Shown here one piece after another: positions 38,669-43,003 of a stretch of 64,000 bases of DNA; the first letter of the stretch is position 1; every line of letters starts with the position of its first letter. The stretch lies in the NCBI GenBank assembly GCA_009837205.1, contig VXTZ01000026.1, positions 7,200 to 71,199 of the forward strand. Reading direction: 5' to 3'. Under the pieces are notes generated by a model. That model worked only from the letters and a program-made list of their open reading frames with translations, was not told the origin of the DNA and did not search any database. This DNA comes from Candidatus Dadabacteria bacterium (GTDB lineage: Bacteria > Desulfobacterota_D > UBA1144 > Nemesobacterales > Nemesobacteraceae). Both the position numbers and the translations under genes were made by a program.

Positions 38669-38823
38669 ACAGCGAAGATACTCAACACGAGGTATGGGAT
38701 TAAGGGCCGTCGGCCCAGGCTCTTGTTAGATTCCTGCAGGAAATAAAATCCCACCACGCCGAAACCGAAGACCTCACCGGCCTCGATCACATCATTGACA
38801 CGGTACTTTCTTGTGTGGTAGGG

Positions 38824-38846
38824 TAAATGATAATATTTCTCATTTA
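38824..38846 (+). promoter_or_regulatory. Fur-family (Zur-like) operator, copy 1: TAAATGATAATATTTCTCATTTA
   Basis: 7-9-7 palindrome (TAAATGA...TCATTTA) containing the Fur-type AATGATAAT core. It lies just downstream of TTGACA (38795..38800) and directly upstream of the small ORF. Confidence 0.55.
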
Positions 38847-38855
38847 CCCATGCAG

Positions 38856-39140
38856 ATGAGCAGAACATTTTCCTTATCGCTTACAATCGCCTTTCTGGGA
38901 GCGCAGATGCTCTCCTTTGCCCATGCGGCCGAGTACGGTTCCTGGGAACACGAGCATGAGGGAATTGCCTGCGAGATATGCCTGAGCGCCAAGTATCAGG
39001 ACTTCTCAAGTCCCGACGCCGCGAGCGGGCCCAGTGTTCTTCGCCACGCGGAATACGTCTCTCAGTCACCCGCTAGCGCTACCATCGTTCGGGACAATTA
39101 CGATGAGGGAATTACCCGCGGACCTCCCATCCCATCCTGA
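38856..39140 (+). CDS. 94-aa exported/anchored His-Cys protein (EHEHE...CEIC...RGPP), paralog 1
   Basis: N-terminal hydrophobic segment LSLTIAFLGAQMLSFAHA, then EHEHEGIACEICL and a C-terminal ITRGPPIPS. May belong to the DUF2946-like class (not verified). Start chosen by analogy with paralog 2. Confidence 0.5.
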   Translation: MSRTFSLSLTIAFLGAQMLSFAHAAEYGSWEHEHEGIACEICLSAKYQDFSSPDAASGPSVLRHAEYVSQSPASATIVRDNYDEGITRGPPIPS

Positions 39141-39163
39141 CTCTGTAAACAGACTTTTTATTC

Positions 39164-39181
39164 CCCGCGCATACGTGCGGG
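39164..39181 (+). terminator. conserved hairpin CCCGCGC-ATAC-GTGCGGG (possible attenuator/partial terminator), copy 1
   Basis: 7-bp stem (one G-U pair) followed within 6 nt by a T-rich run AATTTTCTTTT. Identical in copy 2. Confidence 0.3.
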
Positions 39182-39218
39182 CAGCGGAATTTTCTTTTCA
39201 AACTTTAAGGAGGAAAAA

Positions 39219-40751
39219 ATGAATATATTGCGTTTCGCGGTAATAACTGCGTTTTTTGCCGTCTTGCCGTTTTCTCATATCCCCGCCTTCGCCGCTTCTG
39301 ATCAGGAGATAGAAGCTTTGAAGAAGGAAATACAGGAAATGAGGTCAGAATATGAGAACCGGATTTTAAAGATGGAGGAAAAACTTGCCGAGATGAAGAC
39401 TGCGGCAACCGTGGATAAAACGAAAACGACTTACTCAAAGAGCAGGGACAGCGTCTACCCCGGCAGAGCCATTTACAACAGCACCCTTAATCCTTCAATC
39501 GGAGCGGTACTGGGCGGACGCTTCGCCGCATTCTCTTCTGACGAGGGCGAGATTCCAGGGTTTGTCCTAGGACACGAAGGAGAACGCGGAGCGGAAGGAA
39601 TTTCCCTCGGAGAAACCGAACTTAATCTTTCGACAAGTGTTGACGATAAATTCTACGGCCACATAACCACGGCCCTTGCAGACCATGGAGACGGGGTTGA
39701 GATAGAGCTTGAGGAGGCATACGTGGAAACCCTTCCAGGTCTCGGGCTTCCAACGGGAGCGACGATAAGGATGGGACGCGCGTTCTGGACTTTTGGATAC
39801 CTGAACGAGCATCACGCCCACGCTGACGATTTCGCCGATCGTTCCCTGCCTTACAGGGTGTACCTTGACAAGGGCTTTAATGATACCGGAGCGCAGATTT
39901 CATACGTGCTTCCAACAGATTTCTATGTTGAGGCGGGAGGCGGTATTTTCCGCGGAGACGATTTCCCGTTTGCGGGAGCTGAGGGTAGCGACATAAACTC
40001 ATTCAGTGCCTTCCTGCGGGTAGGCGGTGACATAGGAAATAATTCATCCTGGAGAATCGGGGGTTATTTCCTTGACGGAGAGGCAAGCGGTCGCGCCGGC
40101 GGACACGGACATGGACACGAAGACGAGCATGCCCATATGGATGACCACATGGATGATCACGATGACGACCACATGGATGATCACGATGATGACCACATGA
40201 ATGACCACGATGATGACCACATGGATGACCACGCGGGTGAACACATGGATGACCACGATGATGACCACGCGGATGAACATGGACATGAGGAGTTCTTCAG
40301 CGCCGGCATGTTTACGGGCGACACGAGGCTTTACTCGGTTGATTTTCGCTACGTTTGGGCCCCCACTGGAAACATCCGCCAAAAAGAGGTGCTTCTCCAG
40401 GGTGAGTATTTCTGGCGTGAAGAAGAAGGCATCTACACTCTTGAGGAAGGAGGCGAGGTCCACGAAGAGCACCTCGACGGAGGAAGCCACGGCTGGTATG
40501 CACAGGGGGTTTTCAAGTTCTCGCCGAAATGGAGAATCGGAACCCGCTATTCCCAGATCTACTCTCCTAAGGATTCAGGGATAGATCATGACCCCTACGC
40601 GGTAGCAGTCATGGGAGACTGGTCAAACAGTGAATTCTCGCGCATACGCCTTCAGTACAACTACGAGAAACTGGGTGAGGACCTGAGCGACAACCAGATC
40701 CTGCTCCAGTACATAATGAGCATAGGCGCACACGCCGCGCATAAATACTAA
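39219..40751 (+). CDS. porin-like outer-membrane protein with N-terminal coiled coil and internal His/Asp-rich repeat loop
   Basis: Signal peptide MNILRFAVITAFFAVLPFSHIPAFA and a heptad-like SDQEIEALKKEIQEMRSEYENRILKMEEKLAEMK. Beta-strand-like alternation runs through the rest. AAGGAGG RBS upstream. The coiled coil plus barrel layout resembles the phosphate-selective-porin (O/P) family. Confidence 0.55.
   Translation: MNILRFAVITAFFAVLPFSHIPAFAASDQEIEALKKEIQEMRSEYENRILKMEEKLAEMKTAATVDKTKTTYSKSRDSVYPGRAIYNSTLNPSIGAVLGGRFAAFSSDEGEIPGFVLGHEGERGAEGISLGETELNLSTSVDDKFYGHITTALADHGDGVEIELEEAYVETLPGLGLPTGATIRMGRAFWTFGYLNEHHAHADDFADRSLPYRVYLDKGFNDTGAQISYVLPTDFYVEAGGGIFRGDDFPFAGAEGSDINSFSAFLRVGGDIGNNSSWRIGGYFLDGEASGRAGGHGHGHEDEHAHMDDHMDDHDDDHMDDHDDDHMNDHDDDHMDDHAGEHMDDHDDDHADEHGHEEFFSAGMFTGDTRLYSVDFRYVWAPTGNIRQKEVLLQGEYFWREEEGIYTLEEGGEVHEEHLDGGSHGWYAQGVFKFSPKWRIGTRYSQIYSPKDSGIDHDPYAVAVMGDWSNSEFSRIRLQYNYEKLGEDLSDNQILLQYIMSIGAHAAHKY
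40098..40289 (+). repeat. in-frame tandem repeat encoding GGHGHGHEDEHAH(MDDHDDDH)n...ADEHGHEE
   Basis: Roughly 24-nt units (cacatggatgatcacgatgacgac and variants) are repeated about six times. They lie inside the porin-like CDS at about aa 294..357. Confidence 0.85.
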
Positions 40752-40928
40752 GAGCAACCGTAGCGTGAAACGCTACCTGGTTTTTCTCTCTACCCTCATG
40801 CCGGGGCTGCTTTTCGCGGCCCCGGCATATTTTTTGGCAGCTGGCCCAGGGAATCGGTGGAACTGACGGCCCGAAGTACATACACAAGTACATACATCAT
40901 TGACATCGCACTTTTTCGTGTGGTAGGC

Positions 40929-40951
40929 TAAATGATAATATTTCTCATTTA
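40929..40951 (+). promoter_or_regulatory. Fur-family (Zur-like) operator, copy 2: TAAATGATAATATTTCTCATTTA
   Basis: Identical 23-mer to copy 1. Confidence 0.55.
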
Positions 40952-40960
40952 CCCATACAG

Positions 40961-41245
40961 ATGAGCAGAACATTTTCCTTATCGCTTACAATCGCCTTTC
41001 TGGGAGCGCAGATGCTTTTCTTTGCCCATGCGGCCGAGTGCGGTTCCCGGGAACACGAGCATGAGAGAGTTTCCTGCGAAATCTGCCTGAACGCCAAGTA
41101 TCAGGACTTCTCAAGTCCCGGCGCCACGAGTGAAGTCCGTGTTCTTCACCGCGCACAGCACGTCCCGCAGCCGCTCGCTGACGTTATCTTCGTTCGGGAC
41201 ACTTGCGAAGCGGGAATTACCCGCGGACCTCCCATCTCCTCCTGA
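40961..41245 (+). CDS. 94-aa exported/anchored His-Cys protein (EHEHE...CEIC...RGPP), paralog 2
   Basis: MSRTFSLSLTIAFLGAQMLFFAHAAECGSREHEHERVSCEICL...ITRGPPISS. Same length as paralog 1. Confidence 0.5.
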   Translation: MSRTFSLSLTIAFLGAQMLFFAHAAECGSREHEHERVSCEICLNAKYQDFSSPGATSEVRVLHRAQHVPQPLADVIFVRDTCEAGITRGPPISS

Positions 41246-41267
41246 GCTGTAAACAGACTTTTTATTC

Positions 41268-41285
41268 CCCGCGCATACGTGCGGG
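41268..41285 (+). terminator. conserved hairpin CCCGCGC-ATAC-GTGCGGG, copy 2
   Basis: Identical to copy 1 and followed by the same T-rich run and AAGGAGG RBS. Confidence 0.3.
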
Positions 41286-41322
41286 CAGCGGAATTTTCTT
41301 TTCAAACTTTAAGGAGGAAAAA

Positions 41323-42234
41323 ATGAATATATTGCGTTTCGCGGTAATAACTGCGTTTTTTGCCGTCTTGCCGTTTTCTCATATCCCCGCTTTCGCCGCT
41401 TCTTATCAGAAGGTAAAAGTATTTGCCTGCGAACCGGAATGGGCGGCACTGGCCCAAGAAATCGGCGGTGACAAGGTGGAAGCGTTTTCAGCCACCTCGG
41501 CCACACAGAATCCACACTACATAAGGGCACGCCCAAGCCTGATATCCAAAGTGCGCAAAGCCGATCTGCTGATCTGCTCGGGCGCAAGTCTTGAGGTAGG
41601 CTGGCTTCCGGTTCTGCTCAAGAAGGCAAGTTCTGATCTCCAGCCCGGCTCCGCCGGTTACCTTATGGCTGCAAATCTGGTCACCATGCTCGAAGTACCG
41701 GTTGTGGTCGACCGCAGCATGGGAGATATACATCCGGAAGGCAATCCCCACTTGCACCTGAATCCGTACAACCTGATAATTGTAGGCGAAGTGCTTGCCG
41801 ATCGCCTTTCGGAAATCGACCCTGGGACCGCCTCTTTTTACAAAAACCGATTCCAGGATTTTTCATCACGCATGCAAAAGGCCATCTCCCGGTGGGAATC
41901 CGAGGCCGCCGAGCTTAAAGGGAAGCCGGTGGTGGTTCATCACAAATCGTTTAGTTATCTGATTGACTGGCTCGGAATGAAAGGAGTGGGGGCGCTTGAA
42001 CCGAAACCCGGAATTCCCCCCACAGCTTCTCACCTGAAGAATCTGCTGCAGCAGTTAAGAAACAGCCCGGCGGATGTGATTATCCGTACCCCTTACGATC
42101 CGGCTGGCGCGAGTGAATGGTTCTCGGAGAAAACCGGGACAAGGGCAGTCGTGCTTCCTTACACCATTGGCGGTGACAGCCAGAGCGGCGACCTGTTCGC
42201 GCTGTTTGACAGGATTATAGCTTTGTTAAAATAG
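41323..42234 (+). CDS. znuA: metal (Zn/Mn-type) ABC transporter substrate-binding protein, ZnuA/TroA family
   Basis: DIHPEGNPHLHLNP motif with cluster-9 SBP layout. The signal peptide is identical to that of the porin-like protein. No long His-rich loop. Confidence 0.75.
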   Translation: MNILRFAVITAFFAVLPFSHIPAFAASYQKVKVFACEPEWAALAQEIGGDKVEAFSATSATQNPHYIRARPSLISKVRKADLLICSGASLEVGWLPVLLKKASSDLQPGSAGYLMAANLVTMLEVPVVVDRSMGDIHPEGNPHLHLNPYNLIIVGEVLADRLSEIDPGTASFYKNRFQDFSSRMQKAISRWESEAAELKGKPVVVHHKSFSYLIDWLGMKGVGALEPKPGIPPTASHLKNLLQQLRNSPADVIIRTPYDPAGASEWFSEKTGTRAVVLPYTIGGDSQSGDLFALFDRIIALLK

Positions 42235-42241
42235 ACATATA

Positions 42242-43003
42242 ATGTTAAGCGGTGAACTTCTGGAAATCATCGGGCCGGCAGTGGCTGCGGGCCTCATGAT
42301 TGCGCTTACCCACGCTCCCTTGGGCATCGAGGTGCTGCGCCGCGGCATCATCTTCATTGATCTTGCGGTGGCGCAGATTGCGGGACTCGGGCTTGTGGTC
42401 GGCAACATGTTTATCCATGATCCTTCTCCGTTGCTGATCCAGTTCATGGCTCTTAGCTGCGCGGTCGCGGCAGGGCTGTTTTTCCGCAAGGTGGAAACGG
42501 CGATGCCCGAGCGACAGGAAGCGGTCATAGGGTGCACTTTCGTACTTGCCGCATCGCTGGCGCTTCTGCTGCTGGCCGACCACCCCCACGGCGGAGAAGA
42601 GGTAAAGCACCTGCTTTCGGGACAGATGCTGTTTGTGACATGGACAGACGTGGCGAAACACTCGCCCATTTACGCGTTGATACTGCTGGTCTGGTTCTTC
42701 AGGCCCGAGGTGCGGAACAACATTGGATTTTACCTGCTCTTCGCCCTTGCCATCACTTCGTCGGTTCAGCTGGTCGGCGTCTATGTAGTCTTTGCGAGCC
42801 TCATACTGCCGGCTCTGGCCGCCGTACGCGTAAGACAGCCTCATCTTGTCGCATGGCTCTGCGGGGTGGTGGCGCTTCTGTCAGGCATCGCCTTCGCCGT
42901 AGCGTTCGATATGCCCGCCGGACCGATTATTATCCTGTCATACACCGCGACGGCCCTGACTATACGAGGGGTCAGGATGGCAAACCGGGATCAGAGAACT
43001 TAA
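42242..43003 (+). CDS. znuB: metal ABC transporter permease (ABC-3 family, ZnuB-like)
   Basis: ~250-aa polytopic protein with ABC-3-like segments (GIIFIDLAVAQIAGLG, VYVVFASLILPA), located 7 nt after znuA. Confidence 0.75.
   Translation: MLSGELLEIIGPAVAAGLMIALTHAPLGIEVLRRGIIFIDLAVAQIAGLGLVVGNMFIHDPSPLLIQFMALSCAVAAGLFFRKVETAMPERQEAVIGCTFVLAASLALLLLADHPHGGEEVKHLLSGQMLFVTWTDVAKHSPIYALILLVWFFRPEVRNNIGFYLLFALAITSSVQLVGVYVVFASLILPALAAVRVRQPHLVAWLCGVVALLSGIAFAVAFDMPAGPIIILSYTATALTIRGVRMANRDQRT

Follow-up and report, generated by a model that had tools for sequence, protein, structure and literature searches.

The subject of this analysis is a direct repeat of about half a kilobase in a window of 64,000 nucleotides (by the window we mean this whole stretch of DNA) from contig VXTZ01000026.1 of a Candidatus Dadabacteria genome (GCA_009837205.1). 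The two copies of the repeat, called cassette A and cassette B, stand in front of two different envelope genes. Cassette A leads into a gene for a predicted outer-membrane beta-barrel protein, and cassette B into znuA, which codes for a ZnuA-family binding protein and is followed by a znuB-like permease gene. Each copy holds a putative promoter with a Fur-type palindrome, a small upstream open reading frame (uORF), an intergenic hairpin, a Shine-Dalgarno (SD) sequence and the signal-peptide codons of the next gene. The coordinates of these features are collected in Table 1.

The repeat is real and lies above chance expectation. In a local alignment of 38789-39315 with 40894-41419, 475 of the 528 columns were identical (90%). 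Over 38789-39299 the two copies differed at 50 of 511 sites, and the longest identical run in this interval, 144 nt, was matched in none of 20000 shuffles. The two copies agree least in the 3' half of the small ORF (20-21 of 30 positions per block) and most from its stop codon through the signal-peptide codons, the 3' approximately 170 bp of the two copies being nearly identical. The signal-peptide copies differ by one synonymous base, and beyond them the sequences are unrelated. An indel of 1 nt is placed just 3' of the stop codon of the small ORF, and the spacer from uORF to gene is 78 nt in cassette A and 77 nt in cassette B. In most relatives the shared stretch is four codons longer (SDQE, 31 codons); copy 2 of the window has lost one codon in it (SYQ-K). 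The original prediction had described a repeat of about 516 bp with TTGACA, a 23-bp Fur-type palindrome, a 94-aa ORF without internal indels, a hairpin, AAGGAGG and 27 shared codons, and all of these were found in their places, the pairwise alignment reaching through the signal-peptide codons as claimed. Its proposal that a complete expression-and-export cassette had been duplicated before two unrelated envelope genes is likewise supported, as judged from the parts, which are present in both copies.

Table 1. Features of the two-cassette locus; positions are those of the window and paired positions refer to cassette A / cassette B.
Feature	Position	Strand	Basis
Cassette A (repeat copy 1): promoter, operator, uORF-A, intergenic hairpin, SD, barrel codons 1 to 27-31	38789..39315	+	alignment
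Putative sigma-70 promoter A: -35 TTGACA 38795-38800, 18-nt spacer, TG-extended -10 TAGGGT 38819-38824	38795..38824	+	sequence; function inferred
23-bp palindrome TAAATGATAATATTTCTCATTTA, identical in both cassettes	38824-38846 / 40929-40951	+	sequence
uORF-A, 285 nt, 94 aa: signal peptide, H23, H32-x-H34, C39-x-x-C42, R88-G-P-P91; CruR/CutF-like (DUF2946-related) putative exported arrest peptide	38856..39140	+	sequence
Arrest codons CGC GGA CCT CCC 39117-39128 and 12-nt tail ATC CCA TCC TGA 39129-39140, proposed anti-SD	39117..39140	+	folding; footprint geometry from CruR toeprint (PMC12992588)
Intergenic GC hairpin CCCCGCGCATACGTGCGGG, identical in both cassettes; 7-bp stem, ATAC loop	39163-39181 / 41267-41285	+	sequence
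Shine-Dalgarno AAGGAGG of the barrel gene / znuA	39207-39213 / 41311-41317	+	sequence; predicted pairing with uORF tail
27-residue signal peptide MNILRFAVITAFFAVLPFSHIPAFAAS, same in both genes	39219-39299 / 41323-41403	+	sequence
510-aa outer-membrane beta-barrel gene (predicted): signal peptide 39219-39299, N-terminal helix, ~18 strands, His/Asp-rich insert 40105-40296	39219..40751	+	AlphaFold2 (AF2), Foldseek
Decayed relic of native znuA 5' end (start position, signal-peptide codons, part of mature N-terminus; 38-nt internal deletion)	~40752..40868	+	alignment
Terminator-like hairpin inside the relic, 13-bp stem, 10 G-C pairs and T-run	40798..40836	+	terminator scan, folding
Cassette B (repeat copy 2): promoter, operator, uORF-B, hairpin, SD, signal-peptide codons	40894..41419	+	alignment
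Putative promoter B: -35 TTGACA 40900-40905, -10 (TAGGCT) 40924-40929		+	sequence
uORF-B, 285 nt, 94 aa: B-type paralogue; RGPP codons 41222-41233, anti-SD tail ATC TCC TCC TGA 41234-41245	40961..41245	+	sequence
Chimeric znuA: barrel-type signal peptide (41323-41403) fused to ZnuA-family mature protein, predicted His-His-His metal site	41323..42234	+	PF01297, alignment
znuB-like ABC-3 permease, 8 nt after znuA	42242..43003	+	PF00950 7.1e-19

The small ORF is the first gene behind the promoter and the operator and is followed by the spacer, and this gene order is the same in three distant loci (L026, L097 and L099). Judging from its substitution pattern it evolves as coding sequence: it was intact in 35 of the 35 copies examined, and the ratio of nonsynonymous to synonymous divergence (dN/dS) was 0.19 in codons 1-50 and 0.5-0.6 in the remainder. 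Its homologues form 81 clusters, and all those with a named source come from Candidatus Dadabacteria. The conserved parts are the N-terminal signal sequence, F21, H23-AAE, H32-x-H34, C39-x-x-C42 and the C-terminal G-I-T-R-G-P-P-x-S-S. By inspection, the export signal MSRTFSLSLTIAFLGAQMLSFAHA, after which the mature part would begin with AE, has an n-region that is basic, a hydrophobic core of 13 residues and the cleavage motif A-H-A. The CxxC motif reads C39-E-I-C42, and both cysteines are invariant in 28 aligned Dadabacteria sequences; most of the distant 94-aa relatives retain the first Cys only. RGPP (residues 88-91 of 94) was found in 80 of the 81 Dadabacteria clusters, and in 79 of these 80 exactly three residues follow it. 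The gap between CxxC and RGPP is 45 residues (43-87) in the window and in all aligned Dadabacteria copies, and also in 53 of 102 distant relatives. In the annotation the small ORFs are either missing or called 'hypothetical'.

A profile search of 1.8 billion representatives brought up about 100 more distant proteins, nearly all of 92-100 aa, which share H-x-AEHG...H-x-H...C and a C-terminus of the form R-A-P-P-x-F-S; their arrest motif is RAPP in 84 and RGPP in 16 cases. When 44 of the distant relatives were scanned, 6 matched Pfam DUF2946 (PF11162), with a best E-value of 2.4e-5. The uORFs themselves matched nothing in Pfam or NCBIfam, and nothing significant in the PDB by sequence search. 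DUF2946 is the family of CruR (Bp2923) of Bordetella pertussis, a uORF whose CxxC senses copper and whose RAPP arrests the ribosome, by which the downstream transporter gene is controlled through Rho-dependent termination (PMC9426467). The window resembles this system in that the small first gene of a metal-uptake operon carries an export signal and CxxC and is followed by a non-coupling spacer and then by an outer-membrane transporter gene (PMC9426467), and the arrangement CxxC-45 residues-RGPP-3 residues has the very values given for Bp2923/CruR. A second relative is CutF of Rhodobacter capsulatus, an exported nascent sensor the stalling of which melts a stem-loop masking the next gene's ribosome-binding site (10.1101/2022.11.11.516240). 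In common with CutF is an exported sensor of <150 aa with a C-terminal proline-rich stalling motif and action in cis (10.1101/2022.11.11.516240; 10.1101/2025.02.05.636593); the uORFs of the window have 94 aa, PP at residues 90-91, a signal peptide and a downstream gene 78 nt (A) or 77 nt (B) away. ApdA, ApdP, ApcA and SecM also possess a C-terminal R-A/G-P-P core in a small secreted protein upstream of the regulated gene (PMC7897499, PMC10951233, PMC12992588). In reporter and PURE-system assays RGPP was the most robust arrest-supporting variant, and its occurrences are enriched close to the C-terminal end of small secreted proteins (PMC12992588). By its motif, its spacing, its position and its context the small ORF was thus filed as a putative, divergent arrest-peptide uORF of the CruR/CutF type.

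The arrest codons are followed directly by the last codons of the uORF, and these are predicted to act on the next gene. In folds of the sequence that runs from the arrest codons up to the downstream start, the uORF tail with its stop codon (typically CUC-UCC-UCC-UAA) paired with the downstream AAGGAGGAA in a long-range helix that encloses the intergenic hairpin. The SD was predicted to be unpaired with a probability of 0.00-0.06 in 10 of the 11 cassettes folded; for uORF-B the value was about 0, and the centroid structure pairs UCCUCCU with AGGAGGA. On an alignment of 30 sequences the tail-SD helix was paired in 88.5% of the cells, slid controls giving 51-60% for the whole structure. The intergenic hairpin was paired in 80-83% of the cells (82.7% on the 30-sequence alignment; slid controls, 38-60%) and contains four pairs with compensatory changes on both sides. 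RNAalifold returned 4 pairs only from the intergenic alignment alone, and the tail-SD helix emerged once the 3' end of the uORF was included. The codon usage is in keeping with such a role of the tail, the serine codons of the last two positions of the uORF being TCC in 54 of 58 cases vs 93 of 241 elsewhere in the uORF, and the RGPP codons are nearly invariant. In L026, L097 and L099 the tails (UUC-UCC, UCU-UCC), the SDs (AGGAGAA, AGGGAGAAA) and the spacers (77-137 nt) have changed, and the pairing is kept in the minimum free energy structures of all three; in the centroid structures it is full in L026 and L097 and partial in L099, the SD being unpaired with probabilities of 0.11, 0.03 and 0.21, respectively.

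The putative promoter elements are kept in all 35 cassettes of related genomes. A consensus promoter scan called neither of the two cassette promoters, the -10 hexamers (TAGGGT / TAGGCT, both preceded by TG) agreeing with the consensus at 3 of 6 positions. The AT-rich 23-bp palindrome, of Fur-family type, is conserved in the related cassettes and overlaps the -10 hexamer and the expected transcription start, a position from which a bound repressor would act by occlusion of the promoter. Only these two sites occur within the 64 kb, where 0 are expected by chance. The operator sequence differs from the proteobacterial Zur box. A search of metagenomes with the exact operator 21-mer gave 67 loci, two of which only are Dadabacteria cassettes, the rest belonging to low-GC organisms. 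The scan gave no metal for the regulator, save in one context: in an unrelated metagenome organism (L071, L073 and L075; GC ~0.35) a gene for a zinc transporter of the ZIP family (Pfam Zip 3.6e-11) has the 21-mer upstream of it, beside a further half-site of similar sequence (AAAATGAAAACATTTCC).

From these elements the following course of events may be proposed. In metal-replete cells a Fur-family repressor, most likely Zur, would close both promoters. On transcription the uORF would be translated, its N-terminus would be exported, and the ribosome would arrest at R-G-P-P, its P and A sites holding the two Pro codons as in the toeprint of CruR (PMC12992588). A ribosome stalled at 39123-39128 (or 41228-41233) would cover the 12-nt tail; since the anti-SD tail lies inside the predicted footprint of the RGPP-stalled ribosome, arrest would free the SD and the downstream gene would be translated, and upon release the tail would shield the SD again, the intergenic hairpin being the scaffold across which the two pair. 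The HxH and CxxC residues, 45 residues upstream of the arrest site, would tune the arrest by their metal occupancy. The polarity expected for uptake genes is that the metal relieves the arrest, as in CruR, and the predicted output is a CutF-type SD unmasking. The A and B versions of the uORF may set different thresholds for the outer-membrane and the periplasmic steps of uptake.

The genes behind the cassettes bear on the question of the metal. The barrel protein matched no Pfam or NCBIfam family and had no significant sequence match in the PDB, and its family of >2000 homologues has no Pfam model. Its AF2 model of about 18 strands (pLDDT, predicted local distance difference test, 69; pTM, predicted template modelling score, 0.63) was matched by Foldseek to OprP, OmpT, AlgE, OprO and DcaP (E-values 2.5e-11 to 1e-9, target-normalised template modelling scores 0.4-0.65), which agrees with the porin-like character first ascribed to it. 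The His/Asp-rich insert is encoded by a tandem repeat with a 12-nt period, giving (H-M-D-D / H-D-D-D)n. The orthologues have 466-514 aa, their length varying mostly at this insert, and it is absent from the distant 447-450-aa barrel homologues of L026, L097 and L099. The barrel gene always adjoins ZnuA and ABC-3 genes, distant taxa included, and the module of uORF, barrel, ZnuA and ABC-3 was found in at least three further lineages. In the loci of three distant barrel homologues (P0136, P0173 and P0191) the order is barrel-ZnuA-ABC-3 without room for an upstream uORF, and thus the uORF is not universal for the barrel module. The protein encoded behind cassette B matches Pfam PF01297 (6.9e-39), in agreement with its original assignment to the ZnuA family, and its best NCBIfam match is the zinc protein AztC. 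Aligned with PsaA it has His at both conserved His ligands and a further His (VVVHHKSF) at the position of PsaA Glu205. His instead of the Glu ligand is typical of the zinc-type cluster A-I binding proteins, Glu being the ligand of the Mn/Fe binders.

The best guess for the metal is zinc, on the ground of these His ligands, the AztC match, the insert of the barrel, the conserved sensor residues of the uORF subfamily (three or four His and one Cys, the second Cys being gone in most of the distant members) and the operator 21-mer ahead of the ZIP transporter gene. The same observations speak against a response of the cassette to copper, or to manganese or iron, which we regard as somewhat unlikely, though every characterised DUF2946 uORF responds to copper, CxxC is well known as a Cu(I) motif, the ZnuA-like protein finds its best PDB sequence matches among Mn-binding proteins of the PsaA/MntC type, and Fur-family boxes are not assignable to a metal from their sequence. 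Neither zinc nor ZnuA is mentioned in the CruR, CutF or RGPP papers. The authors of the CutF studies consider some CutF-like clusters to be probably not copper-specific (10.1101/2022.11.11.516240; 10.1101/2025.02.05.636593).

The output could also be that of CruR itself, with the same assignment of the uORF: the arrested ribosome would block Rho, or a pause or terminator element, transcription would run on into the downstream gene, and the shielding of the SD would be incidental. This mechanism has been shown for the founding member of the class; the 3' end of the uORF is C-rich, and the spacer to the next gene contains a conserved hairpin and, after it, a U-rich tract. That the intergenic hairpin is a canonical intrinsic terminator was not supported, the U-tract being 6-8 nt off the stem in A-type cassettes and the scan giving no score. 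A second, small hairpin (CGCGGU-NAUA-ACYGCG with U6, 39236-39257 / 41340-41361) lies 17 nt inside the signal-peptide coding region in 35 of 35 cassettes and could be a pause or attenuation element. It varies by G-U to G-C changes only, and an RNA-level selection on the signal-peptide codons, by which their travelling with the cassette could have been explained, was not borne out, the proportion of synonymous differences (pS, 0.28 and 0.21) being only slightly below that in the rest of the same genes (0.32-0.39 and 0.23-0.27). The intergenic region is moreover short, 78 nt vs 162 in B. pertussis, and the pairing of tail and SD is conserved across lineages. An output through Rho is on this evidence unlikely, although the two could coexist, SD shielding being combined with Rho-dependent control.

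The tail and the motif geometry also bear on a third possibility, that the product of the small ORF is a working metal-binding protein, periplasmic or secreted, which acts in trans, such as a metallochaperone or a zincophore-like protein, the A version serving the barrel and the B version ZnuA. The signal peptide, the invariant His and Cys residues and the purifying selection seen throughout the mature part would be natural in such a protein, and the A/B-specific residues 51-85, conserved across genomes, could reflect partner specificity. A simple chaperone would give no rationale, however, for the constraint on the tail codons and for the tail-SD complementarity in four lineages, and it would not call for RGPP exactly three residues from the end and 45 after CxxC. 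CruR is in addition reported to have little structure, to be translated weakly and probably to be short-lived, and neither CopL nor CutF acts in trans. We consider the role in trans quite unlikely as the explanation of the locus; it and the role as an arrest peptide are not mutually exclusive.

In order to follow the history of the repeat, the window proteins were mapped onto the 21 loci obtained in a scan of species-representative genomes, many of them from chromosome-level metagenome-assembled genomes (MAGs). The two-cassette order uORF-barrel-uORF-znuA-znuB is present in 15 genomes and the single-cassette order uORF-barrel-znuA-znuB in 5 (L004, L010, L011, L013 and L020). A neighbour-joining tree of ZnuA and ZnuB unites the genomes with two cassettes in one clade, outside which the genomes with a single cassette fall. 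In the latter znuA starts a few bases past the stop codon of the barrel gene and has a signal peptide of its own, MKRLLTFLSILLPGLLFVAPAFSFA, followed by KVKVFACEPEW. All two-cassette genomes contain, between the barrel gene and cassette B, a decayed copy of this native znuA 5' end, in which the start codon is lost or stop codons are gained, with clade-specific deletions in addition. The relic of the window aligns base for base with the live znuA 5' end of L004 and L011 and with the longer relic of L009. The deeper relics extend through ...KVKVFAC...AQEIGG, and the live gene resumes at KVKV, so that about 60 nt of znuA are present twice. The relic tells in which direction the change went: on this sequence comparison a single cassette is ancestral, and the duplication is old. 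The synteny comparison suggested with the original prediction is thereby settled in favour of a single ancestral cassette, the 5 outgroup genomes having the native ZnuA signal peptide. Contig JAAXHL010000045.1 (L008), labelled Candidatus Poribacteria, has a Dadabacteria-type two-cassette locus with a partly N-masked cassette B; it is probably mis-binned.

The event itself may be reconstructed as follows. In the ancestor of one Dadabacteria clade the module would have consisted of the promoter with its Fur-type operator, a CruR/CutF-like uORF, the barrel gene, znuA and znuB. Its first ~525 bp, from the -35 box through barrel codon 31, would then have moved in frame into the 5' end of znuA, by which znuAB would have gained a promoter, an operator, a uORF and an SD, the native ZnuA signal peptide being replaced by that of the barrel protein. 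The simplest route would begin with a tandem duplication of the segment comprising the cassette, the barrel gene and znuA codons 1 to ~48; the second copy would then have lost, in frame, the stretch between barrel codon 32 and znuA codon ~25. These two steps would leave what is observed, a znuA 5' fragment stranded upstream of cassette B and the KVKV...AQEIGG codons present twice. Copying of the whole cassette would be expected, because such uORFs are reported to act in cis only and a second gene needs its own copy. The stranded fragment would have decayed, and its inverted repeat with the T-run now resembles a terminator of the barrel gene. This hairpin is the strongest terminator-like site in 38.6-43.2 kb (-45.7 kcal/mol, z -4.5) and probably ends the barrel transcript; the same hairpin lies inside the live native signal-peptide codons of L011. 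The relic also retains a 33-codon open frame from GTG (VKRYLVFLSTLMPGLLFAAPAYFLAAGPGNRWN, then a stop codon; 40765-40866) at the native znuA start position, which is not conserved as an ORF in the deeper genomes and is probably non-functional.

The A and B cassettes have persisted as two types with recurrent exchange between them. In the variable 3' half of the uORF the identity of B copies across genomes is 0.89 vs 0.76 between A and B within a genome, and the B-type uORFs form an orthologous clade. In segment trees, B-type uORF halves were found in the A position of L007, L014, L015 and L016, and B-type intergenic hairpins in the A position of the window, L001, L002, L007, L014 and L015; L002 has an A-type hairpin in the B position, its hairpin types being reversed from the usual. 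Certain derived changes are common to the two copies of a genome: L019 carries a 3-nt insertion in both of its signal peptides, and L014 an extra loop base in both hairpins. At 23 A/B diagnostic sites, defined on unconverted genomes, window cassette A reads BB aaaaaaaa.aaa BBBBBB aaa and cassette B reads BBBB aaaaaa BB.B BBBBBB aaa; L007_A and L014_A are converted. The B-type tracts of cassette A are 38879-38882 and 39138-39182, which includes the intergenic hairpin, and the A-type tract of cassette B is 38952-39010 in cassette-A alignment coordinates (~41057-41115). This pattern of sites shows both window cassettes as A/B mosaics, with tracts apparently moved both ways by recurrent gene conversion. 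The near-identical ends and the divergent middle of the window copies would thus be the result of tracts exchanged between the A and B types. In the L001-L019 set the synonymous divergence is lower on the B/znuA side than on the A/barrel side, for the uORF (dS 0.22 vs 0.44) and for the genes (pS 0.21-0.27 vs 0.28-0.39, the genome sets being slightly different); this could come from recombination between lineages or from a different constraint. In both segment trees cassette A of the two-cassette genome L003 clusters with the only cassette of L004, which hints at exchange between lineages or at an ancestral type retained in an otherwise converted subclade.

The original prediction had offered a recent duplication or homogenisation by gene conversion, and of the two it is conversion that the mosaics bear out. 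A recent tandem or segmental duplication in this genome, with the middle diverged by relaxed or diversifying selection and without conversion, would agree with the near-identity of the 3' ends and with a dN/dS of about 0.9-1.2 between the uORF-A and uORF-B of the window. It is nevertheless very improbable: the two-cassette layout and the A/B types are common to a clade of 15 species-level genomes, the B copies are nearer to each other than to their own A copies, the relic is decayed with clade-specific deletions, and the hairpin and intergenic regions of unconverted genomes differ between A and B, which makes the identity in the window secondary; independent duplications in all the related genomes would otherwise be required.

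An independent assembly of essentially the same strain (GCA_009845025.1, VYAJ01000113.1; L096) has the same two-cassette structure, with one single-nucleotide polymorphism relative to the window in ~5.6 kb outside the uORF. The 42 further differences are all in uORF-B (41017-41246), L096 having the cassette-A base at 40 of 41. Two explanations offer themselves, a conversion from A to B that is very recent and spans at least 230 nt, or a repeat-induced error in the short-read MAG of L096. The uORF-B of the window is not a chimera of its own A copy, because it is orthologous to the B-type uORFs of other genomes. That the second cassette is an assembler chimera across the repeat is hardly credible, for although at least one assembly or strain must have a different uORF-B, the two-cassette structure is seen in both assemblies and in 15 other genomes, chromosome-level MAGs included, and the chimeric ZnuA N-terminus and the relic are conserved clade-wide.

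Taken together, the best explanation of the locus is an old duplication of a whole cis-regulatory cassette, maintained by gene conversion, with the small ORF functioning as proposed above, and we hold it to be probable for origin, maintenance and inferred function alike. Its fully specified form is put forward tentatively: a zinc-responsive uORF of the CruR/CutF class, in which stalling at RGPP unmasks the next SD, shielded by the uORF's own last codons, on a portable cassette that was copied and is kept by conversion, both sensor versions being retained.

Several points weigh against this reading. What is said of arrest, export, metal binding, repressor and transcripts is deduced throughout from the DNA sequence. 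The output mechanism and the metal could differ, as the published members are copper-responsive and CruR is Rho-dependent. The uORFs of the window gave no DUF2946 match at E<=0.1 or E<=1, and the link to that family runs via intermediate sequences and motif geometry. There is no Shine-Dalgarno sequence ahead of the uORF. The tail of window cassette A (IPS, AUCCCAUCCUGA; AUC-CCA-UCC-UGA) pairs less well, the SD being unpaired with a probability of 0.5; its predicted alternative partner is CCUCC of the Pro codons, and on these folds the two cassettes of the window genome may differ in leakiness. Within Dadabacteria the anti-SD helix is almost invariant, the covariation support coming from the three distant lineages only. 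A motif search of the 64-kb window found no Fur/Zur gene. No ORF with both Walker A and LSGGQ, as expected of an ABC ATPase (ZnuC), occurs within the 64 kb, the only Walker A match being a 760-aa ORF taken as Clp-like; the ATPase is also absent beside the module in L022-L024, L026 and L097 and must be encoded elsewhere or shared. The duplication-plus-deletion route is the simplest reconstruction, and no intermediate was observed.

The locus differs from each of the known systems in several respects. CruR has RAPP in about 145 aa, whereas the uORF here has RGPP in 94 aa and does not reach the Pfam DUF2946 threshold; downstream of CruR are a TonB-dependent transporter and PepSY, and here a porin-type barrel and ZnuA/ZnuB. 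In the window the likely metal is zinc, the SD is predicted to be shielded by the tail, the promoter has a Fur-type operator, the host belongs to Dadabacteria and the uORF occurs twice in the locus. CutF induces a detoxification enzyme with copper and has a PPP-type, EF-P-dependent motif; in the window uptake genes are served, the opposite polarity is expected, and the proposed anti-SD is formed by the uORF's own last codons. ApdA, ApdP, ApcA and SecM monitor Sec/YidC and are released by a pulling force, whereas the His/Cys ligands here suggest a release or stabilisation driven by metal. Zur-regulated znuABC, as in the Caulobacter Zur regulon (PMC4176598), likewise has a ZnuA-family protein and an ABC-3 permease behind a promoter-overlapping Fur-type palindrome, together with an outer-membrane component; the present locus lacks an adjacent znuC, has, in place of a TonB-dependent receptor, a barrel of porin type whose N-terminus is a coiled coil, and adds the uORF as an extra layer.

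For the sharing of a leader there is a parallel in the 'upstream homology box' of the Erp genes (OspE/OspF/Elp) of Borrelia burgdorferi, where unrelated surface proteins obtained a common promoter/operator and leader peptide via recombination (PMC10016077, PMC12242104). Those are multicopy lipoprotein genes of plasmids or prophages, concerned with host interaction and without a uORF or metal regulation; here there is a single chromosomal operon with two copies and a traceable displaced native signal peptide. The statement of the original prediction that no case had been described of a signal peptide shared through a promoter-plus-leader repeat does not hold in view of this precedent (PMC10016077), and the uORF fits the CruR/CutF class (PMC9426467; 10.1101/2022.11.11.516240). 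The RGPP motif, the anti-SD tail, the signal-peptide relic with its terminator-like hairpin and the mosaic nature of the copies had not been mentioned there.

What appears new is the tie of this uORF class to a zinc-type uptake module with a Fur-type operator, in Dadabacteria as well as in the relatives that the searches brought up; the simple design of an arrest site and an anti-SD tail; and the duplication of a whole cis cassette by which a native signal peptide was replaced, with a traceable relic and bidirectional conversion still going on. The metal-sensing arrest-peptide uORFs CruR and CutF were described in 2022-2025, for copper only, and according to the CruR authors no riboswitch is known for Cu or Zn (PMC9426467). 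If the proposal is true, zinc uptake, rather than copper, would for the first time be linked to a uORF of the CruR/CutF class, a protein standing in for the zinc riboswitch that is missing; and with a conserved subfamily of ~180 clusters (at the search resolution) heading barrel-ZnuA-ZnuB, the mechanism would reach a second metal and uptake through both membranes. With the arrest site directly beside the anti-SD tail, the geometry is unusually readable and testable by reporter fusions in E. coli. The locus would also be a clean, datable case of a cis-only regulatory device spreading within a genome: promoter, sensor and gene start were copied as a block, the displaced signal-peptide relic was apparently re-used in part as a terminator, and the copies exchange tracts both ways, apparently even between near-identical strains.

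A minor observation concerns the operator 21-mer outside the cassettes. In about 20 low-GC marine metagenome loci (GC ~0.3; L031, L033, L034, L039, L051, L054, L055, L057, L058, L063, L067, L068, L078, L082 and others), TAAATGATAATATTTCTCATTTGCATATGCAAATGAAT lies directly upstream of a class IV aminotransferase (ilvE-like) gene. It is a conserved, regulatory-looking element which contains the same 21-mer as the cassette operator.

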